A stretch of 64,000 nucleotides of DNA from an uncultured Candidatus Saccharibacteria bacterium. Lineage in GTDB: Bacteria > Patescibacteriota > Minisyncoccia > Phycocordibacterales > JACOZG01. Shown piece after piece: positions 9,160 to 57,507 of the stretch. Both the position numbers and the translations under genes were made by a program. Within the stretch, counting starts at the first letter, position 1. Each line of letters opens with the position of its first letter. The notes below the pieces were generated by a model, which saw only the letters and a program-made list of their open reading frames with translations, ran no database searches and was not told the origin of the DNA. The stretch spans positions 160,961-224,960 of the forward strand of contig CAYNPK010000001.1 of NCBI GenBank assembly GCA_964399075.1, written 5' to 3'.

Positions 9160-9169
9160 GATTAATACA

Positions 9170-9487: not shown

Positions 9488-9494
9488 CCCGCTA

Positions 9495-11130: not shown

Positions 11131-11148
11131 GGCTAAATAATTATCATC

Positions 11149-12669: not shown

Positions 12670-12689
12670 TAAATAAGTTATGCTCTAAT

Positions 12690-12977
12690 ATGGCGGTCCA
12701 AGTTCATGAAGAAAGATTGATAGCCCTGCTCCAGCGTCTAACGGCCGAGTTTCTTAATCGCGAGAGTGGCAAGCAATCTCTAATCACCGTTACCGACTTC
12801 AATCTCTCAACCGACCACCGTCGCGGGATGATTAAAATTTCCGTCTTGCCGGAGAGCATGGGCGAGAGCGCGCTCCTCTTCGCCAAGCGTCGACGACATA
12901 GTTTGAGAGATTATATCAAGAAGAACGCTCGCCTCGGCCGTATCCCCCATTTAGATTTCGAGTTGATTAAGGCCTAG
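12690..12977 (+). CDS. rbfA: ribosome-binding factor A
   Basis: 95 aa immediately after infB; RbfA-like VTDFNLSTDHRRGMIKISVL pattern. Confidence 0.7.
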   Translation: MAVQVHEERLIALLQRLTAEFLNRESGKQSLITVTDFNLSTDHRRGMIKISVLPESMGESALLFAKRRRHSLRDYIKKNARLGRIPHLDFELIKA

Positions 12978-13045
12978 TAGCCAAGTGGTAAGGCAAGGGT
13001 CTGCAAAACCCTTATACGGCGGTTCGATTCCGCCCTAGGCCTCCA
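12971..13045 (+). tRNA. tRNA-Cys (GCA)
   Basis: Cloverleaf GGCCTAG acceptor, anticodon loop CTGCAAA, TTCGATT T-loop, encoded CCA, U73 discriminator. Confidence 0.85.
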
Positions 13046-13862: not shown

Positions 13863-13921
13863 ATCCTCGCTTTTCTTTTTGTACTGCTCACCTTTTTCTC
13901 CAAAATCCTTAAGTTTTTCCT

Positions 13922-14947: not shown

Positions 14948-15011
14948 ATCTAGTAATTTTATAATTTTACCAGCTTTTTGCCTAATTTAGAATTTAGAAT
15001 TAAGTCCACTC

Positions 15012-19977: not shown

Positions 19978-20009
19978 AAAAAATACCCCCCGGACTGGTT
20001 TCCGGGGGG
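19978..20009 (-). terminator. rho-independent terminator (CCCCCCGG-loop-CCGGGGGG plus U-tract on the minus strand)
   Basis: Perfect 8-bp GC stem followed on the minus strand by UAUUUUUU. Confidence 0.6.
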
Positions 20010-20171
20010 TTGTGACGACTCTGTTGTTAGCCGTCACAGGGTTCACCGCGATTCGCTTCGGTTACGCTGCCACCAGGCTCCTCAGCACAATCATGGCGGT
20101 TCCTCCTTCGAGTCGCCGTGTTACAATGTGTGGCTCCGCCCAACGCGCGAGCCTCTGCTAGTTATCAGAGC
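20010..20171 (-). ncRNA. candidate structured small RNA / micro-ORF element between two terminators
   Basis: ~55-60% GC and ORF-free; at least six local hairpins; contains GAAGGAGGAA-N5-ATG and a 10-codon ORF (MIVLRSLVAA, ~20062-20094). Confidence 0.25.
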
Positions 20172-20207
20172 AAAATAAAAAAGAACCGCAAGTTTTTCGC
20201 CTGCGGT
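20172..20207 (-). terminator. rho-independent terminator after the radical SAM gene
   Basis: Minus strand ACCGCAGG-cgaaaaac-TTGCGGT hairpin followed by UCUUUUUUAUUUU, directly after the stop codon. Confidence 0.55.
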
Positions 20208-20241
20208 CCCTGATACCTCATACTCTCTTCACCTCTTTCTC

Positions 20242-21810
20242 TCATCTCTTACGATGAGTCTTGACCAAGTCATCCGTCATCTTTTGGAAGTGGAGGAGCT
20301 TAGCCGCTTGGGCAAAAAACTCCGCCAATCCATGCGGATCCCGCCGGAGCACCCACCAAAGCTGATGGGCAAAGAAGATATCCGGCCGGCGGAACAAGTT
20401 CCGCCACAGGAGCCGACCAGCCACGGCCAGATTCCGCCAACTTAGACGACTGGGCCGATGATAAGGACCACGTCTGGAAGCCAGAACCCGACAGCGTTGG
20501 TAGTAATTCCGAGAATGGAAGAGGTGGCGAAGCAATTCCACATAACCATCGATAAGGAATTGCTCCGGCAATTCGGTTTCGAAATTGAAACCGAGATGAT
20601 GGGTGTTGTTACCTCCCGATTCGCCCCGCAAGCGCCCGGCCCTCTTGAGCTCTTGGTAGAGAGGCGTCCCTCGAACGGCCGTCAAAAGTCCCGGCATTGG
20701 CATTACCACACCGGTCGTTAGCAGGAAGGCTGGCAAGACCTCAAAGACATTCGGTTTCTCACCATCGTGACCGATGATGATACCGCCACTAACCTCCAGC
20801 CCTGATTCCTGAATGATGGCGATCTTTTCCGCCAAACTCAAACTGCCTAGATTCTGACCCTTATCCATCGCCTTCAAGACATCTGGATCTGAGGATTCAA
20901 GACCGATAAAGATTTCAGCAAATCCCGCATCAACCATCAAGTCACGGATATCGGCGTGATTAAGCATGCCCAAGTCCGCGCTGGCTTCCGTAAACAGAGA
21001 GAAGGGGTAAGACCGCTCTCTCTGCCAATCGGCCAAGACTGGCAGAAAAACGCGTAGGGCCGACTTATTGCCAATGAAGTTATCATCAACAATGAAGACC
21101 GGACCACGCCAACCAGCTTGATAAAGAGCGTTGAACTCGCGGATCATCTGCTCTGGCGACTTAGCTCGAGTGCGACGACCATAGAGACCGGGAATGTCGC
21201 AGAAGTCGCAAGAGAAGGGACAGCCACGAGAGTATTGGACCGCCATGGAAGCGTAATCGTCCAAGTTGATCAAGTCCCAACGTGGCACCGGAGTCCTGTC
21301 GATCAGAGCCTTACCTTCACGAGTGAGGGAGGCGGGAGACATTCTCTGCACCCAAACACTCTCTTCGTAGATCGCCCGAGGTGTACCAGCGCGCCAGTCT
21401 TCCAGAAAAGGCCAAAGAGTGACTTCGGCTTCGCCAAGAACCAGATAGTCAGCCGGCACATCATCCGGATACAAAGTCGGATGCGGGCCACCACTGACAA
21501 CCTTCTTGCCACGCGAGTGAACTCTCTTGATTACTTCTCTAAGCGACTCACTCTGAACCAACATGGACGAAGTGAGAATCAGATCAGCTTCGTCAATCTG
21601 ATCATCGGTGAGAGATTGAACATTGAGATCAACCAACCCGGTAACCAGAAAATCGTCAGGCAACATGGCGGCCACAGTTAAGAGTCCGGTTGGAGGCATG
21701 GCAGACTTTCTGCCTGAGATTTCCACAGCTTTTTGGAAACCCCAAAAGGAAATCGGGAATTTGGGATAGACCAAGAGAACTTTCGTACGGATGCGTGTAT
21801 GAAGACGCAT
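20242..21810 (-). CDS. B12-binding-domain radical SAM protein with C-terminal DUF4070-like extension
   Basis: N-terminal cobalamin-binding region, radical SAM CPFSCDFC (CxxxCxxC) motif, 522 aa; GC ~52% versus ~40% in flanks. Confidence 0.8.
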   Translation of the reverse strand: MRLHTRIRTKVLLVYPKFPISFWGFQKAVEISGRKSAMPPTGLLTVAAMLPDDFLVTGLVDLNVQSLTDDQIDEADLILTSSMLVQSESLREVIKRVHSRGKKVVSGGPHPTLYPDDVPADYLVLGEAEVTLWPFLEDWRAGTPRAIYEESVWVQRMSPASLTREGKALIDRTPVPRWDLINLDDYASMAVQYSRGCPFSCDFCDIPGLYGRRTRAKSPEQMIREFNALYQAGWRGPVFIVDDNFIGNKSALRVFLPVLADWQRERSYPFSLFTEASADLGMLNHADIRDLMVDAGFAEIFIGLESSDPDVLKAMDKGQNLGSLSLAEKIAIIQESGLEVSGGIIIGHDGEKPNVFEVLPAFLLTTGVVMPMPGLLTAVRGTPLYQELKRAGRLRGESGGNNTHHLGFNFETELPEQFLIDGYVELLRHLFHSRNYYQRCRVLASRRGPYHRPSRLSWRNLAVAGRLLWRNLFRRPDIFFAHQLWWVLRRDPHGLAEFFAQAAKLLHFQKMTDDLVKTHRKR

Positions 21811-21953
21811 AACATAACTCCTATATAAGATGTGTAAGAGAAAGAGGTGACAAAGACCAAACCTTGATAATCATCGCAAGAATCAATTAAATTGTAAAAT
21901 TGCTTAGTAAATGATTTAATTAGAAAAGTTAGGAGAAGATAGAGAAGATTAAA

Positions 21954-22026
21954 CCGCCCATAGCTCAGCTGGTAGAGCAGTTGCCTCTTAAGCAAACGGT
22001 CGGGGGTTCGAACCCCTCTGGGCGGA
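21954..22026 (+). tRNA. tRNA-Lys (CTT)
   Basis: Acceptor CCGCCCA/TGGGCGG, anticodon loop CTCTTAA, TTCGAAC T-loop. Confidence 0.8.
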
Positions 22027-22038
22027 CATGGAGAAATT

Positions 22039-22125
22039 GCCTTGGTGGCGGAATTGGTATACGCGCTAGCCTTAGGAGCTAGTTCCCGCAAGGGATTGAG
22101 AGTTCGAGTCTCTCCCAAGGCACCA
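22039..22125 (+). tRNA. tRNA-Leu (TAG), long variable arm, CCA encoded
   Basis: GCCTTGG acceptor, anticodon loop CTTAGGA, long variable arm, GTTCGAGTC T-arm, terminal CCA. Confidence 0.85.
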
Positions 22126-22260
22126 AAATCAAATCAGCCATTTTGCTTGACTTTTATATCTTTTTGATGTAGTATAGAAAGTGGACAAAAAACAATCTCC
22201 TAGTGTTAGGAGATTGGATAAACAGATCTTTGAAACTCTTGTGAACAAGAAAAAAGGAGA

Positions 22261-23454
22261 ATGATCATGAACGAGCCTGGAAACGAGATGTGGGTCGGAA
22301 TGTTCTGGGGCGCCGTGATCGTCCTACCCATTGCGGGCATAGTAGCGCTCGTCTATTTCTTGGCAATCACTGACACAATCTTCACTTTCGTCAAGGAAGG
22401 AGAGATCAAGGCGGTGATGATTGGAGAATCCTTGGTGAAGTTTCTAGTCAACGTCAGTGGTTATCGGTACTACCACCCTACAGACAGCGACCATCCGGCC
22501 AATGCTGGCAAGAACATCGAAGATGTTGTCGATGACTATGCTCGTCTGTTCCCACAAAGTCCAAAGACTTCAATCAAACTGGTCAGAGAACATGTCATTG
22601 TGAAGTTTGACGAAGAAAAAGACAAATACCGAAACTGGTTCAACCGACTTGGTCTCTACTATATCGGTTGGTTGCCTGGATACTTCAAACTTCTGTGGTA
22701 CAAGTTCTTTTGGCAGAAATGGCAACAAGTAGGACAAGATCAGGGGCTCAATGACCCAACCCCAAACAAAGAGGAGGGTAAGTACTTCGTCAAACCAAGA
22801 CAAGAGACTGTCGGATCCTTGTTCTTCCAGACAGTGTATCCCATCACTGCCACTGACGTGGATCTCAAAGAGAACGTCACGGTCAAGATAATTACTCTGG
22901 TAACCGTGCGAGTGGTCTACCCGATGCGGACACTCTTTCGGATTCTACCCATTGGTAACTGGTTCGGCTTCCTCCACTCATCGGTAATTTCTGCCATCAG
23001 AGATTTTGGTGGCGACCAAACCTTCGAGAAGATAAGAAAGGAGAAGCATGAGGCAACAGAGTCGGCTTTCGAAAAAGCGGTGATGGGTGTCAACCCGCAA
23101 CTACTTGAGCAAATTGGGGTAATCGTCATCGGTGTGGATTTCCAGCGGGTTGAATTTCAAAATCCGGAACTCCACAGACGCTACCAAGAGGCGGGCGTCG
23201 CTGAACAAGTCGGTAAAGCATTACAACGAAAAGCCAAAGGTCAGGCTGCGGGGATTCGAACGATCGCAAAAGCCGAAAAAGAACGGCTGGATCAGACGAT
23301 CCCCTCAGATGGTCCAGCGATTTCTAACATCGTACGTGGGATTGTTCTCGCGACCGAGGCTTTGTCAAACGCCAAGTCCCAGAAAGAAACGCCCGATCAA
23401 AACAAAAAACAAAAAGACAAGAGCAAGAAAGGAGAATCACAAGAGCAAGAGTGA
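22261..23454 (+). CDS. SPFH/band-7-like membrane protein with large insertion
   Basis: N-terminal TM; TVKIITLVTVRVVYP and VIGVDFQRVEFQNPELHRRYQEAGVAEQVGKALQRKAKGQAAG match the SPFH core and HflK/flotillin-like coiled coil; GC-rich; likely start at the third codon (strong AAAGGAGA RBS). Confidence 0.5.
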   Translation: MIMNEPGNEMWVGMFWGAVIVLPIAGIVALVYFLAITDTIFTFVKEGEIKAVMIGESLVKFLVNVSGYRYYHPTDSDHPANAGKNIEDVVDDYARLFPQSPKTSIKLVREHVIVKFDEEKDKYRNWFNRLGLYYIGWLPGYFKLLWYKFFWQKWQQVGQDQGLNDPTPNKEEGKYFVKPRQETVGSLFFQTVYPITATDVDLKENVTVKIITLVTVRVVYPMRTLFRILPIGNWFGFLHSSVISAIRDFGGDQTFEKIRKEKHEATESAFEKAVMGVNPQLLEQIGVIVIGVDFQRVEFQNPELHRRYQEAGVAEQVGKALQRKAKGQAAGIRTIAKAEKERLDQTIPSDGPAISNIVRGIVLATEALSNAKSQKETPDQNKKQKDKSKKGESQEQE

Positions 23455-23462
23455 GACACAAA

Positions 23463-23507
23463 AAAACCGGTAGCGAAGTATTACTTCGTTACCGGTTTTG
23501 TTTTTCT
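23463..23507. terminator. bidirectional rho-independent terminator
   Basis: AAACCGGTAGCGAAGTA-TTACTTCGTTACCGGTT palindrome flanked by A-run upstream and T-run downstream, between convergent genes. Confidence 0.55.
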
Positions 23508-23539
23508 AAAAAGAACAAATCCTTTCTGCCATGTGGCTC

Positions 23540-24283
23540 TTATGGAGACCGACGGTCTTCCACGACAACCAGAATCTCTCCGGAGTAGTGGTGATGGTGG
23601 TGATGTTCCACCACCAAGGGCTTGCGGTCTCGACACTGATCAGGTTGAGGGCGGAACGCGCCAACTTCTCTACCCGACCCAGCCAGCCCAGACTTTTCTG
23701 GGACAGTGTAAGCCGGTGGAGGCGCAGGCGGTCGCGAAACCGTCACCTCCGGCGAAGGAGGGGCCTCTGTCTCCTTCCGTTCTTTCGCTTCTTCAGGCGG
23801 AGGAGCAGAAGGAATCTTCGACACCTTGGGGGTATCATCTACCACTGCCGAAGACAAATCAGAAGCCGGTCGAGACTGGATGGCCTCCAGCACCTCCTGA
23901 TGACGCTCTTCAGTGGTAGCCTCCGAGGCCCTGTAACTGGCCTGCAGATTCCCCACCCCCTTCAAAATGTCTCCATTCTGGGAACATCCCTGAATGTGGT
24001 GAATCACCAAGAACAGAAACAACATTCCGAAGAGAGCAATGGTACCCTTGAGGATACGCTCGAGGCCGGACGGATGATTGCGGATGGCATCGGCGACAGC
24101 GGGGCGAGAGCTATCCGTCTGACCTTGCTGAACAGCGTTGGTCAAGCGGGTCATATTCTCACTTAGGTCGGTGAGTAGCGGGACCACCACACCAGCCACC
24201 GCCCGACCAACACTTTCGGCGGTCAAGGCCGGCTGAGTCGGTGGATCGGGAAGAGTTCGACGGGTGATTACTTTCTTGGCCAT
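23540..24283 (-). CDS. hypothetical single-pass membrane protein with Pro-rich linker and HHHHHH tract
   Basis: Longest ORF in a GC-rich stretch; start placed at the second ATG preceded by GGAAAGGAGG; TM IALFGMLFLFLVI; C-terminal VVEHHHHHHYSGE; competing plus-strand ORFs lack signals. Confidence 0.45.
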   Translation of the reverse strand: MAKKVITRRTLPDPPTQPALTAESVGRAVAGVVVPLLTDLSENMTRLTNAVQQGQTDSSRPAVADAIRNHPSGLERILKGTIALFGMLFLFLVIHHIQGCSQNGDILKGVGNLQASYRASEATTEERHQEVLEAIQSRPASDLSSAVVDDTPKVSKIPSAPPPEEAKERKETEAPPSPEVTVSRPPAPPPAYTVPEKSGLAGSGREVGAFRPQPDQCRDRKPLVVEHHHHHHYSGEILVVVEDRRSP

Positions 24284-24371
24284 GATTGGCCTCCTTTCCG
24301 GCTTTTTAGCCATATGGAATTGGAAACGAACATCATTACACCAAACCTATAGCTAGCACGAGGTCTTTAAG

Positions 24372-24406
24372 ATGTCAAGCCAAAACTCCACACCGCCACT
24401 TGACAT
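24372..24406. promoter_or_regulatory. divergent promoter region with 8-bp inverted repeat ATGTCAAG-N19-CTTGACAT carrying two opposed TTGACA boxes
   Basis: Each repeat arm embeds a consensus -35 hexamer on opposite strands; downstream TATAAT (24427-24432) for the plus gene; possible operator. Confidence 0.35.
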
Positions 24407-24497
24407 TTAATGAATATATGATACCCTATAATAGGAAGAGGTCTTGTGACCTTTTGTAAACAATAATAGGCAGTCCTTTGACATAAGGAGGTAGACG

Positions 24498-25352
24498 ATG
24501 AAACCGGTACACAAACTTGGTCTGATCGTAGCGATCCTGGTAATCGCTGTGACAATTCTGTTGGTAACGTCCGACAATTCTTCTTTCAAGACGGTCGGAT
24601 ACACCCTCCTAACAATCGAGGGTCTCCTGGCATTGATCCTCATTGTCCCTTCCATCTATCGGGCTATTGGCAAGGCGACAGTAGCGAGTGGGGAACGATG
24701 GAAAAACCTGAAAAAGACAGTGAACCCACTCATGATCCTGGTGGCCGGATTGATGATCTTCGCGATCATCCGACGATTGCTGTGGCCCAAATTCTCCTTC
24801 ATGGAATCCTTCGCCCAGGAGAACTGGATGGTGGGCATGATTGTGGCCGGTATTATCTTGGCTGCAATCCTGATCTCTCAACAAGAGAGTGAGGCCAGCA
24901 AGAAGATCGGCAAGGTGCTAGCCTGGTCCCTGGTCATAATCAGCCTGGTGACCATTGGACCAATAGTCGGCAAGCGTCTCGGGATTAACGACTGGCTGGC
25001 CGAACGCCCCCGTCCAGCGACAACACAGGCGCTAGCGGAGGGAAGTCGGATCAGAACGAGTAGTGCTCCAACCTGGACTGAAGACGTCATTGCTCCAGTG
25101 GGAGAATGGTCAAACTGGCACCAGCTCCCATCGGGCGTTGATGGTGTCTACCAGGTTCTAAATCGGGGTAGTGTCATGTTCCAACTTTCCGACAAAACTA
25201 CTTTTTCAGTCAGGCCGAAGGAAATTGTCGATTGGGGCGATACGGATGTGCCTTTGTCTCTGAAAAAGACAAGGTATTGCGTAACGTCGCTGGATGAAAG
25301 GCCAGTGATCGTACGCTTCACCTACCAGAGGAAGTCCGGGGGCATGTGGTAA
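24498..25352 (+). CDS. hypothetical polytopic membrane protein with ~110-aa C-terminal soluble domain
   Basis: AAGGAGG RBS 7 nt before ATG; 4-5 predicted TM helices. Confidence 0.55.
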   Translation: MKPVHKLGLIVAILVIAVTILLVTSDNSSFKTVGYTLLTIEGLLALILIVPSIYRAIGKATVASGERWKNLKKTVNPLMILVAGLMIFAIIRRLLWPKFSFMESFAQENWMVGMIVAGIILAAILISQQESEASKKIGKVLAWSLVIISLVTIGPIVGKRLGINDWLAERPRPATTQALAEGSRIRTSSAPTWTEDVIAPVGEWSNWHQLPSGVDGVYQVLNRGSVMFQLSDKTTFSVRPKEIVDWGDTDVPLSLKKTRYCVTSLDERPVIVRFTYQRKSGGMW

Positions 25353-25380
25353 AAGGAAACGCCACACTCCCCCACAACAC

Positions 25381-25430
25381 AACGAGCGAGAGGATATCAA
25401 TCCTCCCGCTCGTTTTTTTATTTTTCTATT
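25381..25430 (+). terminator. rho-independent terminator
   Basis: AACGAGCGAGAGGA-loop-TCCTCCCGCTCGTT 14-bp stem followed by TTTTTTTATTTTTC. Confidence 0.65.
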
Positions 25431-25440
25431 TTTACTTTAC

Positions 25441-25722
25441 CTACCGACAACCAATCGTCCCGCAAATGAGGTGCATAATTCCGAAAGCGGAAACCATAAT
25501 GAACATTCCCACCACTCCCCAGAGCACATGCTGACGGCCAATGGTTCTGGCGTCCTCGCTAGCATCACCTTTAATAATCTCGTAGACGCCGTAGAGGAAG
25601 AAAAGCAGAGCAATACCAAAGAAGAGCTTAATTAAGGGATTAAAGATGTTGACTGTAATCTTATCAATCAGATCAATCGCGTCAGTAGCCGCTTCAGCCG
25701 TGGAAGTGAAGGAGGTAAACAT
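25441..25722 (-). CDS. TrbC/VirB2-like (T4SS-pilin-like) small two-helix membrane protein, paralog 5
   Basis: Two hydrophobic helices separated by a charged loop (GDASEDARTIGRQ), shared with four upstream paralogs. Confidence 0.55.
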   Translation of the reverse strand: MFTSFTSTAEAATDAIDLIDKITVNIFNPLIKLFFGIALLFFLYGVYEIIKGDASEDARTIGRQHVLWGVVGMFIMVSAFGIMHLICGTIGCR

Positions 25723-25730
25723 TCGTTATT

Positions 25731-26108
25731 TTAACGAACAGTAGGTAAAGGTATCTGAGGTACAGTAATGTTTGTTGATCCAAACCGCGCAGTTCTACCA
25801 AGAACAGAGACCAAGCCAACAATAGAAACCATCACGAAGATACCAATCAAGCCATAAATAATCGCATCCCGACCAGCCTTACGCTTATCCTCATCACCAC
25901 CGGCAGTAATAAACTTAAAAGCGCCATAAATAACATAGAGGATAGCAATAGCGATCAGAAATGGAACAATGTAAGCATTTATGAAATTTACTATCTCAAA
26001 AAGAGACTGACCCAAACCCTTACCTTCAAAACTTGCTTGCGCAGATGCCATAATTGGCAAAACCATTACCGCACCAGCAACTAAAACTAATTTAATTTTT
26101 GTTAACAT
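25731..26108 (-). CDS. TrbC/VirB2-like small membrane protein, paralog 4
   Basis: Signal peptide, YGAFKFITAGGDEDKRKAGRDAIIYGLIGIFVMVS block. Confidence 0.6.
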   Translation of the reverse strand: MLTKIKLVLVAGAVMVLPIMASAQASFEGKGLGQSLFEIVNFINAYIVPFLIAIAILYVIYGAFKFITAGGDEDKRKAGRDAIIYGLIGIFVMVSIVGLVSVLGRTARFGSTNITVPQIPLPTVR

Positions 26109-26135
26109 AAACTTAATAATTAATCTATTAATAAA

Positions 26136-26564
26136 CTAACTACCTCTATTAAACGTGGGAACTGGCGGTGGTGTTGTCTCAAAATCAACAGTCCTAATAA
26201 GGATACCGACAAATCCCCAAACTGAAATCATGACAAAGAGGGCAATAATCCCGTAAACCATCATGTCTCGACCGGCTTGCCGCTCTTTCTCATCATCTCC
26301 CTTCCTGATATATTTTAGCATCCCGGCAAGTAAATACACAATAGCCAGGGCGATGAACAAGTAGACAAGCGGTTGAGCTACTTTATCTAACCCACAATTA
26401 ATAAAGTTGGAGAAATTAGCTCCGCAGTTGGCAGAAGGATTTGTTACCGTTTCAATATCGTCTCCATAAGAACCGCTTTGAGCTAATCCAACCGCAGGTA
26501 AGATTAATAGACTAAGAATCAGAATCGGGAGTAAAAATTTTGAGTACTTAAGAAGACTGTTCAT
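26136..26564 (-). CDS. TrbC/VirB2-like small membrane protein, paralog 3
   Basis: Signal peptide, LKYIRKGDDEKERQAGRDMMVYGIIALFVMIS block. Confidence 0.6.
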   Translation of the reverse strand: MNSLLKYSKFLLPILILSLLILPAVGLAQSGSYGDDIETVTNPSANCGANFSNFINCGLDKVAQPLVYLFIALAIVYLLAGMLKYIRKGDDEKERQAGRDMMVYGIIALFVMISVWGFVGILIRTVDFETTPPPVPTFNRGS

Positions 26565-26587
26565 TGTTGATGTTTATAGAAATAATT

Positions 26588-26917
26588 TTAAGAACCTGAT
26601 AATTGATCAATCGTTCCTTCTATCATCGTCTGGATCACGAAAGCGCCCAAGACAATGGCCGCGCCAACAATAGTCCAAAGGAAGGCTTGCTTGGCCTTGG
26701 TCAAATCCTCCGGCTTGCCTCGCGCCATGACGAAGAGCAAACCAACATAGACAATCATGAGAGCAATAATGGGAAGACCAATATTGACAACAATTTCTAA
26801 GATTTTTGTAATTAATTCCGGAATGGAATTAATGCTACCAAGAGGATTAAAAGAGGGAGTTGAGAAACTGCCAGCCCCATCTTGAGCAAATACTTTAACT
26901 ATTAAAAAATCTAACAT
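26588..26917 (-). CDS. TrbC/VirB2-like small membrane protein, paralog 2
   Basis: Same two-helix + charged-loop architecture (ARGKPEDLTKAKQAFLW). Confidence 0.55.
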   Translation of the reverse strand: MLDFLIVKVFAQDGAGSFSTPSFNPLGSINSIPELITKILEIVVNIGLPIIALMIVYVGLLFVMARGKPEDLTKAKQAFLWTIVGAAIVLGAFVIQTMIEGTIDQLSGS

Positions 26918-50928: not shown

Positions 50929-52248
50929 TTACGGTTCCAGTCTCTTTACTCCGCGATATAGATAGGTTACTTCACGCACATTGGTAACTCCCAAAAGCTT
51001 CATAAGCATGCGCGTTGGCCCTGGAGCGAAACCGCCATGCGGTGGACAGCCGTATTTGAAGAAGTTAAGATATGAATTAAAGCTAGACACATCAAGCCCT
51101 TGTTCTTGTATTTGTTTGGTCAGTTGTTCCATTCGATGCTCTCTCTGAGCACCACTGGTAATTTCCAAACCATTCCAAAGCAGGTCAAAACTCTTTGTAA
51201 TTGTCGGGTCATCTTCTTTACGCATACTGTAAAAAGCTCTCGCCTTAGTGGGAAATTCATGAATAAATACAAATTCAGAACCTGTTTCTTTTAGAATATG
51301 CTCACAGATAGCTCGTTCTTCTTCCGGACTCATATCACCATCTCGTTCATCAGATATGCCCATACGACCAGTTATTTCTTTCGCTTCAGCAACGGTTAAT
51401 CTAGGAAATGGGCTGGTGGGAATCTGAATTTTTCTGTGATACATCTTTTCGATTTCATCTCCATACTTTTCTTCCACCGCTTTTAGCATTGCCACAATCA
51501 TCTTTTCTTCTTCACCCATAAGATCGTGGTGCGAAGAAATGTATGACATTTCTATATCGTACATCGTAAACTCCGTATCGTGTCGTGAAGTAAAAGATGG
51601 GTTAGCCCGAAAGACAGGGCCGACTTCAAACACCTTTTCAAAACCGGACGCCATCGCCATTTGTTTATACAGCTGTGGACTCTGAGCGAGACGTGCTTCT
51701 CTGTCGAAATATTTCACTGCAAATAATTCTGCACCAGACTCAGTGGCAGTCGCTGTTAATTTTGGAGAATGTATCTCAATATAATCGTTCTCTATACAAT
51801 ATGAACGAAAAGATTGTTCCATCGTTGTCCATACTTTGAAAATTAAAGCTTTTTCTGGTTTACGTAAATCAAGCCATCTCCAATCAAGACGAATTGACTG
51901 ATCCGTTTCTTCTTGTTGTCCCTTTTCAACTATCGGTATTGGGAGATCAGGATCTGCGAGAGAAAGGATGATAATATTTTTTGCTTCAATTTCAAAACCC
52001 GACGATGCTTGTTTCTCCACTTTTGCTAACCCTCTGATTTCAATGACTGATTCGTGTGTCAATGTTTTAGAAATAGCAAACACATCTGGCTGATGTTTCG
52101 TTATGACAACTTGTACTATTCCGGTAATATCGCGTACTAAAATGAATTTAATATTCCCTTGATCGCGAATTATCTGCGCAAAACCAACAATAGTAATTAC
52201 TTCGCCAATATGTTTTTGAATATCGCGGATGTGTATTCTTGTTTTCAT
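50929..52248 (-). CDS. aspS: aspartyl-tRNA synthetase, archaeal/eukaryotic-type class IIb (native low-GC copy)
   Basis: N-terminal OB fold, motif 2 region FRANPSFTSRHDTEF, motif 3 GCPPHGGFAPGPTRMLM; preceded by a T-box leader. Confidence 0.8.
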   Translation of the reverse strand: MKTRIHIRDIQKHIGEVITIVGFAQIIRDQGNIKFILVRDITGIVQVVITKHQPDVFAISKTLTHESVIEIRGLAKVEKQASSGFEIEAKNIIILSLADPDLPIPIVEKGQQEETDQSIRLDWRWLDLRKPEKALIFKVWTTMEQSFRSYCIENDYIEIHSPKLTATATESGAELFAVKYFDREARLAQSPQLYKQMAMASGFEKVFEVGPVFRANPSFTSRHDTEFTMYDIEMSYISSHHDLMGEEEKMIVAMLKAVEEKYGDEIEKMYHRKIQIPTSPFPRLTVAEAKEITGRMGISDERDGDMSPEEERAICEHILKETGSEFVFIHEFPTKARAFYSMRKEDDPTITKSFDLLWNGLEITSGAQREHRMEQLTKQIQEQGLDVSSFNSYLNFFKYGCPPHGGFAPGPTRMLMKLLGVTNVREVTYLYRGVKRLEP

Positions 52249-52254
52249 AATATA

Positions 52255-52480
52255 AAAATTGCCCTTACAAAATAATAAATCAAGGTTGACGATTTTGTAA
52301 GGGCGATCTACGATCGCGGTACCACCTTACTTCATTGGATTTTTATCCAATCTCTTACCAACTTCCAGTGGTTTGAAGCTGTGACGGGCTTATCCCGGAA
52401 GATTCTACTCTCTCAAAAGTGAGATTTCTTTCCTCGGCTCGACCGTGTCAACGGTTTCATTGCCTTTAATTAAATAATAG
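52255..52480 (-). promoter_or_regulatory. T-box riboswitch leader upstream of aspS
   Basis: Minus strand carries AAGGTGGTACCGCG (T-box sequence) followed by a 12-bp terminator stem GCCCTTACAAAAT/ATTTTGTAAGGGC plus AAUUUUUAU, ending ~12 nt before the aspS ATG; GAGAGAG and a candidate GAU specifier upstream. Confidence 0.7.
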
Positions 52481-52607
52481 CAAAATCGTTAATATAACGC
52501 AAATCCTATACACACAAAGATGATTATGCTATAGTACTTCTGGAACTTCAAGATAGTCTTGAGGTATGTTCTTTTAAAATCCGATCCTGAAAGGAGGAAC
52601 AGCACGT

Positions 52608-52886
52608 ATGCGCACAGCAGAAGAAGTCATGATGCGCTGCAAGCTCATCCTCGATCAGTCGGACATCGTCCTTCTGGTCGATAAGAGTAGCAGCCCAACG
52701 GCGGCCTATGACATGGTTATAAACACAACTCACGACGACGAGACCGCGAAGGCGGCTCGCTGGCTCGGTGTATTGAAAAGGGATTACCCCGATCGGTACA
52801 CTGAAATCACCCACAGCACTCTCAGCCACGTTCAGAGGAACACGGCGAAGAAAGGAGAACGGAATGAAAACGACGTATGCAGTTGA
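52608..52886 (+). CDS. hypothetical small protein (92 aa), first gene of the GC-rich island operon
   Basis: Strong AAAGGAGG RBS; overlaps the start of the AsnRS-like gene; ~55% GC. Confidence 0.45.
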   Translation: MRTAEEVMMRCKLILDQSDIVLLVDKSSSPTAAYDMVINTTHDDETAKAARWLGVLKRDYPDRYTEITHSTLSHVQRNTAKKGERNENDVCS

Positions 52887-54186
52887 CCTACTCCACAGCC
52901 CTTCGGATGGAACGACGGTTGTGCTCTACGGCTGGGTGAAAGCCCGCCGTCGGCATAATCACGTCGTTTTTCTGGACATCACGGACTCCACCGGTTCGAT
53001 GCAGTGCGTGGTCGAAGTTGGCAACAAATCAGCTTTTGAACTCGCGCGGCGCATGAGCCAAGAGACGGCAGTTAAGATCACTGGTGTCATTGCAGATACT
53101 TGCAGAGCGAACCCATCGCGAGAAATCCGCGTTCACAACATCGAGATCGTCGGAGTGAGTACGATTAATGTCTCTCCGTATCCGCGGGGAAACATCGACA
53201 TCCAAGACCCAAGGTTGCAGGAGCAACTTTTGGACAAACGGCATTTTTATCTCCGCAACGAGAAACTTGCCGCCATCCTGAAGTTTCGTCACATCCTCAC
53301 GAGGATCGTGCATCAATGGTTCCATAAGAATGGGTTCATTGAGATCCACGCTCCGGTGCTGACACCGACGCCGCTATACGACGATCGTACTGCTATGGCA
53401 ATCAAGGTACACGAGCAAGATGTATACCTAACACAGTGCGTTGGGTTCTATCTCGAACAAGCAGTTCATGCTCTCGAGAAGATCTACAACATCGGTCCCA
53501 GCTTCCGCGCCGAAGAGAGCCGCTCCAAGAGACATCTCATGGAGTACTGGCACATCAAGGCAGAGTTGGCGTTCGTGGACTTTGAGGACATGGCTTTAGT
53601 AGTCGAGCGGTTCATCCATGATGTGAGCGAGCAGTGTATCCGCGAGGGTTGCGAGCTTGCGAATATCATCGGCACCGAGGTGTGCAGTGACGGCCTTAAA
53701 ACTCCGTTTCCGCGCATTGACTACGCCGAGGCGGTGGAGTGGCTCAGGACGCAGGGTTCCGATATCGAGTTTGGCAAAAGCATGGGTTCCGACGAGGAAA
53801 CTATGCTCTGCCAGCGGTTCGGCGACACTCCGTTTTGGATTGTCGGCATTCCACGATCCATCGAACCCTTTCCTTATGTGGTTGACGCAGCCGATACTCG
53901 TCGAACGAAGACGGCTGATTTGATCGCAAGTCGAGGGTTTGGTGAGCTTCTCGGTATTGCCGAGAAGATCCATTCTCTGTCAATGCTCGATGAACGACTG
54001 GCAGAGAAAGGTAAAGCCGGTGACTCCCGCTACGAATGGTTGCGGGACCTTCGTCAATATGGCTGTGTACCGCACGGAGGCTTTGGCATGGGTCTTGAAC
54101 GGTTGATCCGTTGGCTCTTGCAGATCCCTCATGTGCGAGACACCATTCCTTTCCACCGAGCGTTCGATAGAAGGATTGATCCATGA
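52864..54186 (+). CDS. asparaginyl-tRNA synthetase-like class IIb aaRS (island copy)
   Basis: N-terminal OB fold, motif 2 GPSFRAEESRSKRHLMEYWHIKAELAF (AsnRS-like EFW/EAE pattern), motif 3 GGFGMGLERL. Confidence 0.75.
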   Translation: MKTTYAVDLLHSPSDGTTVVLYGWVKARRRHNHVVFLDITDSTGSMQCVVEVGNKSAFELARRMSQETAVKITGVIADTCRANPSREIRVHNIEIVGVSTINVSPYPRGNIDIQDPRLQEQLLDKRHFYLRNEKLAAILKFRHILTRIVHQWFHKNGFIEIHAPVLTPTPLYDDRTAMAIKVHEQDVYLTQCVGFYLEQAVHALEKIYNIGPSFRAEESRSKRHLMEYWHIKAELAFVDFEDMALVVERFIHDVSEQCIREGCELANIIGTEVCSDGLKTPFPRIDYAEAVEWLRTQGSDIEFGKSMGSDEETMLCQRFGDTPFWIVGIPRSIEPFPYVVDAADTRRTKTADLIASRGFGELLGIAEKIHSLSMLDERLAEKGKAGDSRYEWLRDLRQYGCVPHGGFGMGLERLIRWLLQIPHVRDTIPFHRAFDRRIDP

Positions 54187-54238
54187 ATACCCCATATATC
54201 AAGCCAATCACGGCAAGGCACACTGAAAGGAGCCCATT

Positions 54239-55546
54239 ATGCAAAGGACACTGATCAAGCAGATCGGATCCGAGGTCGGCAAGACCGTTCGGATCTGCGG
54301 ATGGGTGGAAGTGCTCCGCGATCAAAAGCGGATGCAATTCCTCATCATCCGCGATCACACCGGTAGCACGCAAGTGCTTCACGAGAAGTCGGCAAACGCC
54401 GAACTGACGGTAGCTATCGCCGACCTCACGCCTGAAAGTGCAGTGGAAATCATCGGCAAGGTTATTGCCAATCCGGTGGTCAAGCTGGGCGGGCTGGAAG
54501 TAGTGGTCGAGTCGGTAAACATCGTCAGCAAAGCAGAAGCACTTCTGCCGTTTGGCGAGAACCCGACTATCGAAACCCGGCTGGACTGGAGATTTCTGGA
54601 TCTGCGTACCCCGCAGAACCTGCTCGTCTTCAAGATCCAGACGGCGGCCGAGCACGCCATGCGTTCGTTCTGGGCATCGGAGGGGTTCATTGAAATGCAC
54701 TCCCCGAAGTTCATGGGTAGCGCAAGCGAGTCCGGTGCGGAGCTCTTCGAGGTAAAGTACTTCGATCGCAAGGCGTATCTCGCTCAATCGCCACAGTTCT
54801 ACAAACAGATGGCGATGACGGCGGGGTTCGACCGTGTGTTCGAGATTGGGCCGGTCTTTCGGGCCAACCCGTCTTTTACTTCGCGGCACGACACGGAGTT
54901 CACCAGCGTGGACGTCGAAATCTCGTGGATTGACTCCCACGAGGACGTTATGCAACTTGAGGAACGTTGGCTTCGCCACGTGCTTCAAGCGGTGAAAGCC
55001 GAGTATGGCGAGGAGATCAAGGCGACGTTCGGCACGGAGATCGCGATTCCCGAGCTTCCGTTTCCGCGCGTGACTATGGAAGAGGCGTACAATATCCTCG
55101 ACCAAATGGGTCACCGCATTGAGCGGGGCGAGAAAGGCGACCTCGATCCGGAGGGCGAGAGGCTCTTGTGTCGGCACTTCCATGAAAAGACCGGCCACGA
55201 GTTCGTCTTCGTCACCGAGTACCCCGCTGTGGTCCGGGCGTTCTACCACATGCGTCCCGAAGGCAAACCCCGTCTTACCAAGAGCTTCGACCTTCTCTGG
55301 AAGGGACTTGAGGTGACGACGGGGGCGCAAAGGGAGCATCGCTACGAAATCCTGATGGAACAAGCTAAGGAGAAGGGGCTCTCACTTGAACCCATTCAGT
55401 ACTATCTGAACTTCTTCCGCTATGGCTGTCCACCTCACGGCGGTTATGGCTTCGGCCTCACCCGCATGCTCATGGTGATGCTGGGTGCAAAAAACGTGCG
55501 CGAGGTGACATACCTCTACCGAGGCGTCAACCGACTCACTCCGTAG
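54239..55546 (+). CDS. archaeal-type aspartyl-tRNA synthetase paralog (island copy)
   Basis: Same length and ~60% identity with the native aspS at 50929-52248, including the FRANPSFTSRHDTEF block, but ~57% GC. Confidence 0.8.
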   Translation: MQRTLIKQIGSEVGKTVRICGWVEVLRDQKRMQFLIIRDHTGSTQVLHEKSANAELTVAIADLTPESAVEIIGKVIANPVVKLGGLEVVVESVNIVSKAEALLPFGENPTIETRLDWRFLDLRTPQNLLVFKIQTAAEHAMRSFWASEGFIEMHSPKFMGSASESGAELFEVKYFDRKAYLAQSPQFYKQMAMTAGFDRVFEIGPVFRANPSFTSRHDTEFTSVDVEISWIDSHEDVMQLEERWLRHVLQAVKAEYGEEIKATFGTEIAIPELPFPRVTMEEAYNILDQMGHRIERGEKGDLDPEGERLLCRHFHEKTGHEFVFVTEYPAVVRAFYHMRPEGKPRLTKSFDLLWKGLEVTTGAQREHRYEILMEQAKEKGLSLEPIQYYLNFFRYGCPPHGGYGFGLTRMLMVMLGAKNVREVTYLYRGVNRLTP

Positions 55547-55570
55547 CAAGAAGGATCGGCAACTAACAAA

Positions 55571-55620
55571 CCCGGGAGGTTACGAGCATTTTGCTACGAG
55601 CTTCCCGGGTTTCTTTTTTC
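55571..55620 (+). terminator. rho-independent terminator
   Basis: CCCGGGAGG...CTTCCCGGG stem followed by TTTCTTTTTTC. Confidence 0.55.
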
Positions 55621-55647
55621 TCAACCAAACCGAAACGGAGGTAACAA

Positions 55648-56679
55648 GTGAATAGAAAGATAGACCGAGAAGCGTACCTTGCGTACGCACGAGCACTTAG
55701 CGAAAAGGAACATGGCTTAATCCGGGAGTTTCAAGGATGGCTACCGAATACAATAATCGACTGCCACGCGCACTGTAATCTGCCGGAACATGCTCATTCA
55801 ATTGATGATCGCACGTACAATCACATGCTCTCGACTTTCCCGAGCTTCAGCTTGGCAGAGTCAAAGGAATGGCACGCTTTGTTTCATCCGAACAAGACGA
55901 TACGTTCGTTGCGGTTCCCCAAGACGTTCCGAGGAATCAACCATCGAGCGGCAAATCTATACTTACTGGGACAAAGCGATGCAGATGATCGAGTTGCGCT
56001 CTACGGACTTCCCGATGATCCGGAATACACAATCGGAATGCTGGCTCATCCACGGGTATCGACGCTCAAGATGTACTACTCATACCTTGAGCCGTCGGCA
56101 ATGGAGATTTACCAGTACTTCCCGAAGGTGATTCTGGATGAAGCACAAAGGAGAGACATACCGATCATCCTGCATCCACCGAGACGAATAACGATGTGTC
56201 TTGATCAGATACTCACGTTGGCAAAAGACTTCCCCCGTTTGCGGATCTGTCTTGCCCATTTGAGCCTAACCAAGAGTGTCGTGTCTGGACTTGAGGAGGC
56301 GTTTACGGAAATTGCTCGGCTAACACGAGTACACTTCGACACGGCACTGGTGCCATCAGCAGAAGTGGTCACGATGGCCTTGCAAATTGTTGGGTCGGAT
56401 AGGATCATGTACGGCTCCGACGAGCCGCTCAACTTGATCCGCTCAACACCATATGTACACCCGGACAAGGGTGAGCGTTTAGCAACGGAGTATCCGTACC
56501 ATTGGGTTGATATGTCGGATTACCAAGCATACAAACACTTGGCAACCGGCATCACTCACGCTCATTGGCAGGCACTTCAAGCTGTGAAAACAGCCGTGTC
56601 CGCTCTTCCCGAACGGGAACAGGATATGGTGAAGCAAAAGCTCTTTCACGACAATGCAAAACTGTTCCATGGCTTCTGA
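55648..56679 (+). CDS. amidohydrolase-2 family (TIM-barrel metal-dependent hydrolase)
   Basis: IIDCHAHC N-terminal metal motif, MYGSDEP, C-terminal LFHDNAKLF, 343 aa. Confidence 0.65.
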   Translation: MNRKIDREAYLAYARALSEKEHGLIREFQGWLPNTIIDCHAHCNLPEHAHSIDDRTYNHMLSTFPSFSLAESKEWHALFHPNKTIRSLRFPKTFRGINHRAANLYLLGQSDADDRVALYGLPDDPEYTIGMLAHPRVSTLKMYYSYLEPSAMEIYQYFPKVILDEAQRRDIPIILHPPRRITMCLDQILTLAKDFPRLRICLAHLSLTKSVVSGLEEAFTEIARLTRVHFDTALVPSAEVVTMALQIVGSDRIMYGSDEPLNLIRSTPYVHPDKGERLATEYPYHWVDMSDYQAYKHLATGITHAHWQALQAVKTAVSALPEREQDMVKQKLFHDNAKLFHGF

Positions 56680-56702
56680 ACAAGAGCCACAGGAACATCA
56701 AA

Positions 56703-56743
56703 AGGCCTAATTGCGTTTTGGCAATTAGGCCTTTCTTTTTTAT
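56703..56743. terminator. rho-independent terminator closing the GC-rich island
   Basis: AGGCCTAATTGC-gttttg-GCAATTAGGCCT perfect 12-bp stem followed by TTCTTTTTTAT. Confidence 0.55.
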
Positions 56744-56798
56744 CGATTTGGTAATTTATTATTCGCGGATTTTTTTGGCGAGTTCAGCTGATTTTTAA

Positions 56799-57032
56799 TT
56801 ATCCTCTTGTTTGTGGTCGTGAAAAAATATACCCCCCATACTTTTCAAAGTGTTTTTCAAACTGCAATATCTGCGGTTCCCAATTGGACACTTTCATTCC
56901 ATGTATTGGTAATAATTTAACATAAGCGTGATTAATCCCAAAACCTTCGCAAATCATTCCGATCCTGCCAATATCTTGTAATTTAGAATCAAGTAATTTC
57001 CCCACATGCTTGATAAACTCAACAAGGTCCAT
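56799..57032 (-). pseudogene. possible HIT-like gene remnant (C-terminal half only)
   Basis: GFGINHAYVKLLPIHG resembles a degenerate HIT histidine-triad region; the N-terminal half is absent where tRNA-Gly lies; the track ORF start is inside the tRNA. Confidence 0.25.
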
Positions 57033-57056
57033 CAAAATATCTTCTTTCAAAATTGA

Positions 57057-57127
57057 TGCGGGATGCGGGAATCGAACCCGCGTTTTATGCTTGGGAAGCA
57101 TACATTCTACCACTGAATTAATCCCGC
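57057..57127 (-). tRNA. tRNA-Gly (CCC)
   Basis: Minus-strand GCGGGAT acceptor, anticodon loop TTCCCAA, GGGTTCGATTCCCGC T-arm. Confidence 0.85.
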
Positions 57128-57507
57128 TTTAATTTGAAAATCTCTAAAATTTTCTGCCACCAATTGTCATCAACAACCTCATCGGTAGAAATACTTACCA
57201 AGTCTGGAACAACAACAGTAATCACTTTTTCCCCTTCTTTAACAACGGAAAAATTATGCCGGATTGAAGCCTCAATCCCTCGATCAGTTCCTAATTTATC
57301 AAGCTCCGCCTGCAACACCTGTCGACGTTCTTCCAGATTAGCCACTCGACCCAAGAGAGCGCTCCTATCCCTTGCCACCAAATGATAACGCGCCCAACTG
57401 CCAAAGACCGAACGAGCCAGTAGAATAATCAGTAAAATAATCACCACGCTCCAAAAACCGTAGAAAAATTTACCCCTAAATTTAGGCCGATCTTGAAACT
57501 CTTTCAT
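57118..57507 (-). CDS. septum formation initiator (FtsB/DivIC-like)
   Basis: N-terminal TM then coiled coil (ALLGRVANLEERRQVLQAELDKL), 129 aa. Confidence 0.55.
   Translation of the reverse strand: MKEFQDRPKFRGKFFYGFWSVVIILLIILLARSVFGSWARYHLVARDRSALLGRVANLEERRQVLQAELDKLGTDRGIEASIRHNFSVVKEGEKVITVVVPDLVSISTDEVVDDNWWQKILEIFKLKRD

Follow-up and report, generated by a model that had tools for sequence, protein, structure and literature searches.

The window, by which we mean the whole 64,000-nucleotide stretch analysed here (positions 160,961 to 224,960 of contig CAYNPK010000001.1, from an uncultured Candidatus Saccharibacteria bacterium), contains a GC-rich island that encodes an asparaginyl-tRNA synthetase (AsnRS)-like enzyme and an archaeal-type aspartyl-tRNA synthetase (AspRS2), next to the native aspS gene, whose product we call AspRS1. 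The names that homologues carry assign the window to Patescibacteria (candidate phyla radiation), near Paceibacterota. An initial annotation, made from the letters of this DNA, had read the island as a four-gene foreign module with a possible part in immunity to synthetase inhibitors or in tRNA-dependent biosynthesis. The most novel solid result of our sequence analysis is that the AsnRS-like enzyme belongs to an AsnRS-derived subfamily with a rebuilt amino acid pocket, obligately paired with an AspRS of the discriminating type and moving horizontally among Patescibacteria. The island comprises the following features, numbered from the first letter of the window:

52507-52535, plus strand: promoter-like site upstream of the island operon (TATACA-17-TATAGT with TG), predicted by consensus scan only
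52608-52886, plus strand: gene of a 92-aa protein, without a Pfam domain, with a good ribosome-binding site and a 23-nt overlap with the AsnRS-like gene
52864-54186, plus strand: AsnRS-like gene, 440 aa, PF01336 and PF00152
54239-55546, plus strand: AspRS2 gene, archaeal-type AspRS, 435 aa, NF003483 at 492 bits
55565-55620, plus strand: intrinsic-terminator-like hairpin closing the three-gene unit (inverted repeat I1, 55565-55588/55592-55615, then TTTTTT)
55648-56679, plus strand: Amidohydro_2 gene (AH2), 343 aa, PF04909 at 58 bits
56701-56743, plus strand: second terminator (perfect 14-bp inverted repeat, I8, and a T-run)

This order of 92-aa open reading frame (ORF), AsnRS-like gene, archaeal-type AspRS gene, terminator, amidohydrolase-2 gene and terminator is as initially annotated, and is borne out by ORFs, profiles and hairpins. 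GC content, computed in 500-nt windows, is 0.50-0.58 across 52500-56749, against 0.35-0.45 in the flanks and ~0.43-0.44 over the full 64 kb; the island described initially is real, with flanks nearer 40% than the 38% then given. The GC content of third codon positions (GC3), compared gene by gene between the four island genes and eleven surrounding genes, is 0.66 for the 92-aa ORF, 0.61 for the AsnRS-like gene, 0.73 for AspRS2 and 0.55 for AH2, whereas the neighbours range from 0.31 to 0.46, with the native aspS at 0.32. The shift lies in synonymous sites, that is, in codon usage, and leaves amino-acid content unaffected. No regulatory RNA is matched by Rfam ahead of the island operon, in 52470-52607.

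The AsnRS-like enzyme joins an OB-fold to a class II core (PF01336 at 49 bits and PF00152 at 201 bits), and its best match in the PDB is the P. horikoshii AsnRS 1x54 (281 bits, 35% identity). It fails both asnS equivalog models, NF003037 (325.3 bits vs a cutoff of 414) and TIGR00457 (304.1 vs 342.6), and its pocket motifs are replaced, in agreement with the earlier view that it is not a canonical asnS product. We aligned about 50 members of the family with two solved AsnRS and both AspRS of the window. The ATP motifs are intact, motif 2 reading GPSFR[AG]EES..RHLMEYWHIKAE and motif 3 GFGMG[LV]ER across the family, and GPSFRAEES..RHLMEYWHIKAE and GFGMGLER in the window copy. Every stretch that lines the pocket differs from canonical AsnRS: the flipping-loop LSQSxQLYxE is replaced by LTQC[VA]G[FY]YLE (TQCVGFY in the window), xEGGxxLF by PLY[DE]D (PLYDD), the strand Glu of L-E-L-E by Lys (IKAE), GGSQR by G[IVT]AEK (GIAEK) and KAFYM by EPFPY. 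These replacement motifs are near-invariant across the ~50 members, and we read them as a rebuilt pocket. The roles of the canonical pocket residues, including Glu225 and Arg368 of the T. thermophilus enzyme, reportedly come from AsnRS structures of 1998 and 2006. On the tRNA-binding side, conservation within the family extends to G, W, R, F, D, G and Q of the OB-fold core. Arg83 in the L1 loop of P. horikoshii AsnRS is said to read U36, a role ascribed to work by Iwasaki in 2006; an Arg can be aligned with it in the window protein and in the nearest relatives of that protein (CRANPS / TGRPNPP), in a loop that varies family-wide. Judged by these features, the AsnRS-like protein looks like an active, tRNA-binding and adenylate-forming enzyme.

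When 1.84 billion cluster representatives were searched exhaustively, pocket motifs of the same type turned up in at least 23 of the clusters defined at 50% identity. The family reaches down to ~36% identity, where canonical AsnRS with normal motifs start to appear. By these comparisons the AsnRS-like enzyme, which we refer to as QC-type, represents an old and distinct class IIb subfamily; it is apparently undescribed, and a literature search on AsnRS and AspRS paralogues of the candidate phyla radiation, on AsnRS-like enzymes and on GatCAB in Patescibacteria found nothing relevant. One possibility, which we consider rather unlikely, is that the QC-type family consists of AsnRS descendants with a changed substrate, acting either as a dedicated Asp-tRNA-Asn synthetase together with GatCAB or in the charging or ligation of a non-canonical Asx analogue, and spreading as a mobile cassette. 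An argument from pocket charge for aspartate versus asparagine was dropped as indecisive, since the new Asp-Asp pair may offset the new lysines.

Distant members of the family occupy varied surroundings (L-numbers, here and below, denote retrieved loci with flanks of up to 10 kb). In L143 (1083-5628; also in L144), a member of 45% identity stands 196 nt behind gatC-gatA-gatB, on a short contig without AspRS2. Another 45%-identical member adjoins a 1052-aa protein with S51-peptidase and ATP-grasp parts (L140 374-4883), and a 37%-identical one adjoins a nicotianamine-synthase-like gene (L141 541-2708). Two records labelled Gammaproteobacteria, one of them a 1.6-Mb chromosome, carry a lone AsnRS-like gene of 46-48% identity with the family motifs intact (L050 10001-11332 and L051 10001-11323) and have neither AspRS2 nor the hydrolases; the gene in L050 is 1.3 kb away from one for tRNA-Asn. 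The wider AsnRS-like family may have several functions.

AspRS2 is an archaeal-type AspRS by its profile scores (492 bits for NF003483 and 395 for TIGR00458, with cutoffs of 353 and 368), and the native gene beside the island encodes another:

50929-52248, minus strand: gene of AspRS1, the native archaeal-type AspRS, NF003483 at 496 bits, GC3 0.32
52258-52469, minus strand: T-box leader of the native aspS, with an ultrashort Stem I and specifier GAC, Rfam RF00230

AspRS1 scores 496 and 391 bits on the same two models, and its family has 352 relatives in metagenome contigs. The two AspRS are 51% identical, and AspRS2 is 38-42% identical to the T. kodakarensis and T. thermophilus enzymes; AspRS2 is indeed a full-length archaeal-type paralogue of the native enzyme, as initially annotated, at 51% rather than the ~60% identity then stated. 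Both carry the unusual motif 2 FRANPSFTSRHDTEF, which, together with the 51% identity, argues that AspRS1 and AspRS2 are old paralogues within one clade and not imports from different domains. The Asp pocket of AspRS2 is canonical (AQSPQFYKQ, GAQREHR), and AspRS1 has an odd motif 3 (GfapGPxR).

The two families part in the L1 loop of the anticodon domain. AspRS1 reads QAPGG there, with the Pro (P82) in 93% of 76 AspRS1 sequences, and so resembles the KAPGG of T. thermophilus 1n9w, an enzyme deposited as "non-discriminating". AspRS2 reads VKLGG, which aligns with AKLGF of T. kodakarensis 3nel (K82 corresponding to K85); the Lys is present in 98% of 46 AspRS2 sequences, and few other family-specific differences from AspRS1 are seen. 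In archaeal-type AspRS, a Lys in this loop reportedly marks discriminating and a Pro non-discriminating enzymes, a rule attributed to Feng et al. 2003 and Charron et al. 2003. By this L1-loop signature, AspRS2 is of the discriminating and AspRS1 of the non-discriminating type. In at least eight loci with the module, another AspRS gene lies no more than 10 kb away, which indicates that AspRS2 is an additional copy.

The core unit of the island, 52552-55569 (92-aa ORF, AsnRS-like gene, AspRS2 and terminator), has a GC content of 0.51-0.58 and forms a single 3019-bp blastn block with 92% nucleotide identity to CP129473.1 (L145), a complete 692-kb Paceibacterota genome, whereas the aspS1 of that genome is 67% identical to the window aspS1 (66% at the amino acid level). 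There the block stands in tandem with aspS1, in the window it is divergent, and nothing tailoring-like lies downstream of the pair in CP129473.1. The core block is also 77-80% identical in nucleotides to L007, L011, L013 and L126; in L126, which has the same layout as the window, the AsnRS-like gene is 82%, AspRS2 80% and aspS1 63% identical. The terminator at 55565-55620 coincides with the right-hand end of the block that the window has in common with L145 and L007, and the predicted promoter lies just outside the left edge. AH2 falls outside the block shared with CP129473.1, so that the window island is a composite of a 3.0-kb unit and a separate GC-rich AH2 piece. The discordant identities (92% vs 67%), together with the foreign codon usage, show that the island was acquired by transfer, as the initial annotation had proposed. 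The cassette is accessory and dispensable: in L060, whose aspS1 is 87% identical, the equivalent of 52708-54488 is deleted and the AsnRS-like gene is gone, and a stump of the 92-aa ORF is fused to the C-terminal three quarters of AspRS2 (L060 1227-2374), with a full-length HIT gene next to it.

These data leave hardly any room for the view that the pair is an ordinary native asnS-aspS operon or the outcome of a recent duplication of aspS within this genome. NCBI does annotate homologues as "asparagine--tRNA ligase", and the pair is conserved in many relatives; however, the two AspRS belong to separate families with fixed differences, codon usage changes sharply between module and flank, the two differ in their identity to CP129473.1, the module is deleted in the close relative L060, and the asnS models stay under their cutoffs. 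A recent duplication, which the initial annotation had weighed as a counter-explanation, is at odds with the 51% identity and with a composition that is not uniform. We therefore reject both forms of this reading on the discordant identities and the composition.

The island is no isolated four-gene unit, as it had first appeared; it is a copy of a module that recurs in Patescibacteria. When GTDB was scanned with a single genome for each species, only 48 loci emerged, in keeping with an accessory cassette; they come mostly from a dozen patescibacterial classes, with about a dozen records labelled otherwise or just "bacterium". AspRS2 directly follows the AsnRS-like gene in ~44 of the 48, and these two genes form the constant part of the module; roughly one locus in four has the 92-aa ORF, and roughly a quarter to a third have AH2. 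The median GC3 excess over the background of the locus is +0.11 for the AsnRS-like gene, +0.15 for AspRS2, +0.11 for AH2 and +0.07 for methyltransferases, compared with +0.01 for native or other AspRS copies. In the high-GC genomes L056 and L040, module composition matches the background. The original home of the module is plausibly a high-GC patescibacterium, with the L056 lineage as a candidate donor type. In L056 itself (3887-15338; a patescibacterium of ~0.65 GC), the AsnRS-like and AspRS2 genes are accompanied by genes for a 126-aa protein, a methyltransferase, AH2 and HIT, and then by ValRS, TyrRS and ArgRS genes. No dedicated tRNA recurs in the module across 49 loci, and no T-box motif is found ahead of the AsnRS-like/AspRS2 pair in other loci.

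Gene calling in such GC-rich DNA needs care. A 520-aa antisense ORF across the AsnRS-like/AspRS2 junction (53801-55363, minus strand) is a by-product of high GC content; likewise, public gene calls put spurious antisense ORFs in place of AspRS2 in L004 and L006, where tblastn finds AspRS2 intact. A second stretch of raised GC (0.49-0.51) lies at 20000-26600 of the window, with genes for a B12-binding radical-SAM/DUF4070 protein, tRNA-Lys, tRNA-Leu and two T4SS-pilin-like proteins, and may be another acquired segment.

The T-box control of the native aspS, also part of the initial annotation, is confirmed by an RF00230 match at 52296-52469 on the minus strand (56.1 bits, E = 1.9e-11), by the T-box sequence GGUGGUACCGCG at 52315-52326 and by a terminator helix, I5, at 52258-52307. 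The match stays under the gathering score (93), owing to a much-shortened Stem I in which 74 model positions are absent. Besides the T-box sequence and the terminator/antiterminator, the leader has the K-turn, and a purine comes after its specifier codon. Its Stem I consists of the K-turn (AAUGA...GA) and a short hairpin at 52436-52464 (minus strand) with the specifier loop UU-GAC-A (loop 52446-52451), in full GGC-AAUGA-AACCG-UUGACA-CGGU-CGA-GCC. Among 80 retrieved orthologous loci, at least 32 have the T-box sequence ~90 nt upstream of aspS. In the orthologous leaders (L060-L139, L145) the stem covaries, and the loop reads GAC or GAU in ~16 and AAC in ~14; this suggests that the Stem I loop is the specifier and that expression of the AspRS1 family responds to uncharged tRNA-Asp in certain lineages and to uncharged tRNA-Asn in others. 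Such alternation implies that the AspRS1 family answers to tRNA-Asn too, as expected of a non-discriminating AspRS that works with GatCAB, and the ultrashort T-box with its alternating GAC/AAC would offer a simple sequence read-out of the tRNA served by an AspRS. All six readable leaders of cassette-adjacent aspS1 have the specifier GAC, versus AAC in half of all orthologues, although these loci are interrelated; as support for the direct charging route proposed below, the pattern is limited and only suggestive.

The 92-aa protein has 110 homologues, none of them named and none with a Pfam domain, and beyond this family no relatives were detected. Two blocks, SSSPTAAYDM and AKAARWLGVLRRDYP, are conserved in the family, and the C-terminus is variable. 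The AlphaFold2 (AF2) model shows five helices at a predicted local distance difference test (pLDDT) score of 82, with no structural match in the PDB. Its gene lies upstream of and overlaps the AsnRS-like gene in ~10 of the 48 loci; judging by this overlap, the two are translationally coupled. A role as precursor peptide or carrier was considered and rejected, the C-terminus being variable and overlapping the next gene, a Ser/phosphopantetheine motif being absent and no PDB match being found.

Clustering of 878 ORFs from ~50 loci gave these recurrent neighbours of the pair:

~150-aa HIT protein: 21 loci, window remnant included
S51 peptidase: 15 loci
~343-aa S66 peptidase: 12 loci
AH2: 12 loci
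class I methyltransferases: ~12 loci
126-aa uncharacterised protein: 4 loci

A histidine kinase is also among them. In ~42 of 44 pair loci the pair directly adjoins at least one of HIT, S51, S66 and AH2, whose order and orientation vary. The motif ExxxxxHxHxK is present in 20 of 20 full-length HIT proteins; this motif and the loss of the N-terminal His define the MccH clade, a group of enzymes that cleave processed microcin C at its phosphoramide bond, and a stand-alone MccH homologue from Parcubacteria conferred microcin C resistance in E. coli (PMC7157772). The S66 neighbours match MccF or MccF-like structures at 1e-63 to 1e-46 and LD-carboxypeptidases at 1e-18 or weaker; a role as LdcA was rejected, the MccF matches being far better. 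In the window, the HIT gene has decayed:

56765-57056, minus strand: HIT phosphoramidase pseudogene remnant of the MccH clade, matching residues 52-134 of the L060 HIT, GC3 0.33, host-like
57057-57127, minus strand: tRNA-Gly(CCC), a neighbour only, abutting the HIT remnant (ARAGORN, Rfam)

The remnant lacks the N-terminal 51 residues, has a frameshifted tail and reads EGFGINHAYVK, with the nucleophile His changed to Tyr, so that it fails the MccH motif. A 104-aa ORF listed at 56799-57113 runs into the tRNA-Gly gene and has no real protein start.

AH2, unlike HIT, S66 and S51, shares the GC-rich signature of the pair. It scores 58 bits with PF04909 (cutoff 26.4) and has the invariant metal ligands H40 and H42 (HxH), H176, H204 and D258. 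The AF2 model (pLDDT 94.7) is a TIM barrel that Foldseek aligns with 3ij6, LigY and IDCase (probability 1.0, TM score 0.5-0.6); these are generic Amidohydro_2 neighbours at 10-15% identity, and the structural comparison assigns no function. Its family counts 361 proteins, every taxon-named member being patescibacterial or unclassified, and archaeal-type AspRS genes adjoin all three distant members that were looked up. In two loci (L058 9112-11121 and L059 4972-6981), a 669-aa fusion joins the N-terminal and NADP domains of glutamyl-tRNA reductase to an AspRS-like catalytic core without anticodon domain, and is surrounded by AH2, a 458-aa bacterial-like AspRS, AspRS2 (59%) and a zeta toxin; its architecture hints at reduction of aspartyl-tRNA or aspartyl-adenylate.

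Such a neighbourhood bears on the earlier suggestion of immunity, in which AspRS2, and perhaps the AsnRS-like enzyme, would replace a poisoned target by being insensitive to an Asp- or Asn-adenylate mimic, in a producer or a bystander. The cassette duplicates the known target of microcin C, is mobile and patchy, decays when not needed and is set among MccH- and MccF-type detoxifying genes; extra synthetase copies are the classical route of resistance to mupirocin, albomycin and agrocin 84 (review PMC8323819), and the wholesale rebuilding of the AsnRS-like pocket could exclude an analogue. However, all Asp- and ATP-binding motifs of AspRS2 are canonical, the odd motif 3 belonging to AspRS1, natural adenylate mimics directed at AsnRS are not known, and neither a recurrent biosynthetic core nor a precursor peptide, an MccB-like enzyme or an exporter stands beside the pair among the 878 ORFs. 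The anti-phage defence models of PADLOC give no match apart from a weak generic one to HIT. On this evidence we regard target replacement as quite unlikely; immunity in a broader sense is plausible, the MccH- and MccF-clade hydrolases in related loci lending it circumstantial support that was unexpected, and self-resistance of a producer, for which recurrent biosynthetic or export genes would speak, is unsupported.

The other initial suggestion, tRNA-dependent biosynthesis, would have the AsnRS-like enzyme activate a non-proteinogenic acid or use aminoacyl-tRNA, with AH2 and methyltransferases as tailoring enzymes and AspRS2 as a source of Asp-tRNA or of self-resistance. A rebuilt pocket argues for a new substrate, and AH2, the methyltransferases and the 92-aa protein carry the GC-rich signature of the pair; anecdotal contexts are the glutamyl-tRNA-reductase/AspRS-like fusion beside AH2 and AspRS2 (L058/L059) and the distant members next to the nicotianamine-synthase-like gene (L141) and the S51 and ATP-grasp giant (L140). 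On the other side, the core of the OB-fold anticodon domain and the AsnRS-like motif-2 loop are kept, as for a tRNA-charging enzyme; apart from a normal AspRS, no partner is constant; the tailoring genes vary from locus to locus and are often missing (none lies downstream in L145); and no transporter recurs. The small genomes of Patescibacteria, moreover, encode little secondary metabolism. We hold a biosynthetic module to be improbable.

Our preferred explanation, put forward tentatively and with somewhat less than even confidence, is that the cassette is a mobile patescibacterial back-up route for the charging of tRNA-Asp and tRNA-Asn, beside the native aspS. The host clade would charge tRNA-Asp and, via GatCAB, tRNA-Asn through a single non-discriminating enzyme, AspRS1. 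AspRS2, being of the discriminating type, would make Asp-tRNA-Asp only, and the AsnRS-like enzyme would charge tRNA-Asn, most likely with asparagine, via its rebuilt pocket; the 92-aa helical protein would be a partner of the AsnRS-like enzyme, and AH2 an addition in this genome. Together the pair would provide a self-contained direct route to Asp-tRNA-Asp and Asn-tRNA-Asn that backs up or bypasses AspRS1 and keeps charging going when the sole resident AspRS is limiting or poisoned. With only one AspRS, poisoning would stop the charging of two tRNAs together, which would favour a cassette able to restore both. The strictly kept L1 Lys of AspRS2 argues that the partner supplies tRNA-Asn directly, since, if the partner fed GatCAB, nothing would select against AspRS2 doing likewise. 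As for the selective pressure, MccH- and MccF-type hydrolases stand habitually beside AspRS genes, and by analogy AspRS-directed peptide-nucleotide toxins would be the most plausible one.

The main alternative is a split of the non-discriminating function, in which the AsnRS-like enzyme would have switched to aspartate and would be devoted to making Asp-tRNA-Asn for GatCAB, with AspRS2 serving tRNA-Asp only. In the rebuilt pocket, Lys replaces the amide-accepting Glu (LELE to IKAE) and SQR becomes AEK, giving more positive charge, as in an Asp pocket; the member 196 nt downstream of gatC-gatA-gatB would suit this role, and in L020 the module is 4 kb away from a GatA gene. An unconserved L1 loop would be harmless in an Asp-charging enzyme and risky in an Asn-charging one, and the AAC-specifier T-boxes on aspS1 point to the indirect pathway in the host clade. 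Yet AspRS2 would then need no discrimination, and its L1 Lys is 98% conserved; the charge argument is weak, as the new lysines may be offset by the acidic pair of PLY-DD; a loop change alone makes an AspRS non-discriminating, so that re-engineering an AsnRS would be unparsimonious; and the gatCAB adjacency is seen in one lineage only. We judge this alternative unlikely.

Several findings weigh against the back-up route. The AsnRS-like enzyme has none of the canonical Asn-recognition residues, so that charging of tRNA-Asn with asparagine is an assumption on our part, and its variable L1 loop often lacks the Arg. One distant member sits directly downstream of gatCAB, which fits Asp-tRNA-Asn formation; the 64-kb window itself contains no GatCAB and no other AsnRS. 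The Asp-pocket residues are the same in AspRS2 and AspRS1, with no sign of insensitivity to Asp-AMP mimics. The GC3 of HIT, S66 and S51 genes is host-like or lower, and the same hydrolases stand beside aspS1 without the cassette in L081, L102, L115, L138, L071, L077, L065 and L079, from which it follows that they are companions of AspRS genes in general and not cargo of the cassette. With regard to mobility, 52200-57200 contains no integrase or transposase, and flanking repeats there are at chance level only. Integration at the tRNA-Gly gene was rejected, no duplicated tRNA 3' end at the other island border, no direct repeat and no integrase being found; carriage by phage or plasmid was rejected as well, IMG/VR giving no match and PLSDB only canonical asnS at <=36% identity.

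Should the AsnRS-like enzyme prove to be a true AsnRS, as the back-up route would have it, asparagine can be recognised by completely different pocket residues, and an atypical enzyme is being counted as asnS in genome surveys of Patescibacteria. Otherwise it represents a new synthetase-derived activity. Either way, a horizontally exchanged cassette of two genes would supply core Asx-tRNA charging in these tiny genomes, in addition to an AspRS that is non-discriminating and T-box-regulated. The presence around AspRS genes of families that destroy adenylate antibiotics makes microcin-C-like attack on candidate-phyla bacteria a testable question.

Extra synthetase genes that confer resistance or self-immunity are known for mupirocin (IleRS), albomycin (SerRS) and agrocin 84 (LeuRS) (PMC8323819). 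The cassette resembles them in being a second copy of a housekeeping synthetase on horizontally moving DNA; unlike them, it comes without a producer cluster, always holds two synthetases together and has an AspRS2 with a canonical pocket. Immunity to microcin C is provided by the S66 peptidase MccF and the HIT phosphoramidase MccH (PMC7157772, PMC8323819). Homologues with the MccH motif or similar to MccF flank the pair or the native aspS in many related loci; in contrast to the microcin C enzymes, they are stand-alone genes of host-like composition outside any mcc cluster, their activity on aspartamide-adenylate is putative, and the window copy is a pseudogene. In Helicobacter pylori, which has GluRS1 and GluRS2, a dedicated mis-acylating synthetase serves the transamidation route (PMC9976931). 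The cassette could hold the Asx counterpart if the AsnRS-like enzyme makes Asp-tRNA-Asn, the alternative that we consider unlikely; whereas that enzyme is derived from AsnRS, Helicobacter GluRS2 derives from GluRS and not from GlnRS.

For the native side of the locus, where the back-up route places the non-discriminating AspRS1, the nearest parallels are T-box systems. Clostridium acetobutylicum has an aspS2-gatCAB operon controlled by a T-box for Asn, and actinobacterial ileS T-boxes have an ultrashort Stem I. The aspS leader shares with the former a non-discriminating-type AspRS under a T-box able to sense tRNA-Asn, and with the latter a Stem I that terminates in the specifier loop; it differs from both in belonging to Patescibacteria, in standing before aspS alone and in having orthologues that alternate between GAC and AAC in one loop. 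Thermus and Deinococcus possess a discriminating AspRS1, an AsnRS, a non-discriminating archaeal-type AspRS2 and GatCAB. As in these genera, the window encodes two AspRS of different predicted tRNA specificity together with an AsnRS-type enzyme, and the non-discriminating copy has an APGG L1 loop. Here, however, both AspRS copies are archaeal-type and 51% identical, the non-discriminating copy is the native and T-box-regulated one, and the discriminating copy is mobile and coupled to an AsnRS relative in which the Asn pocket has been replaced.

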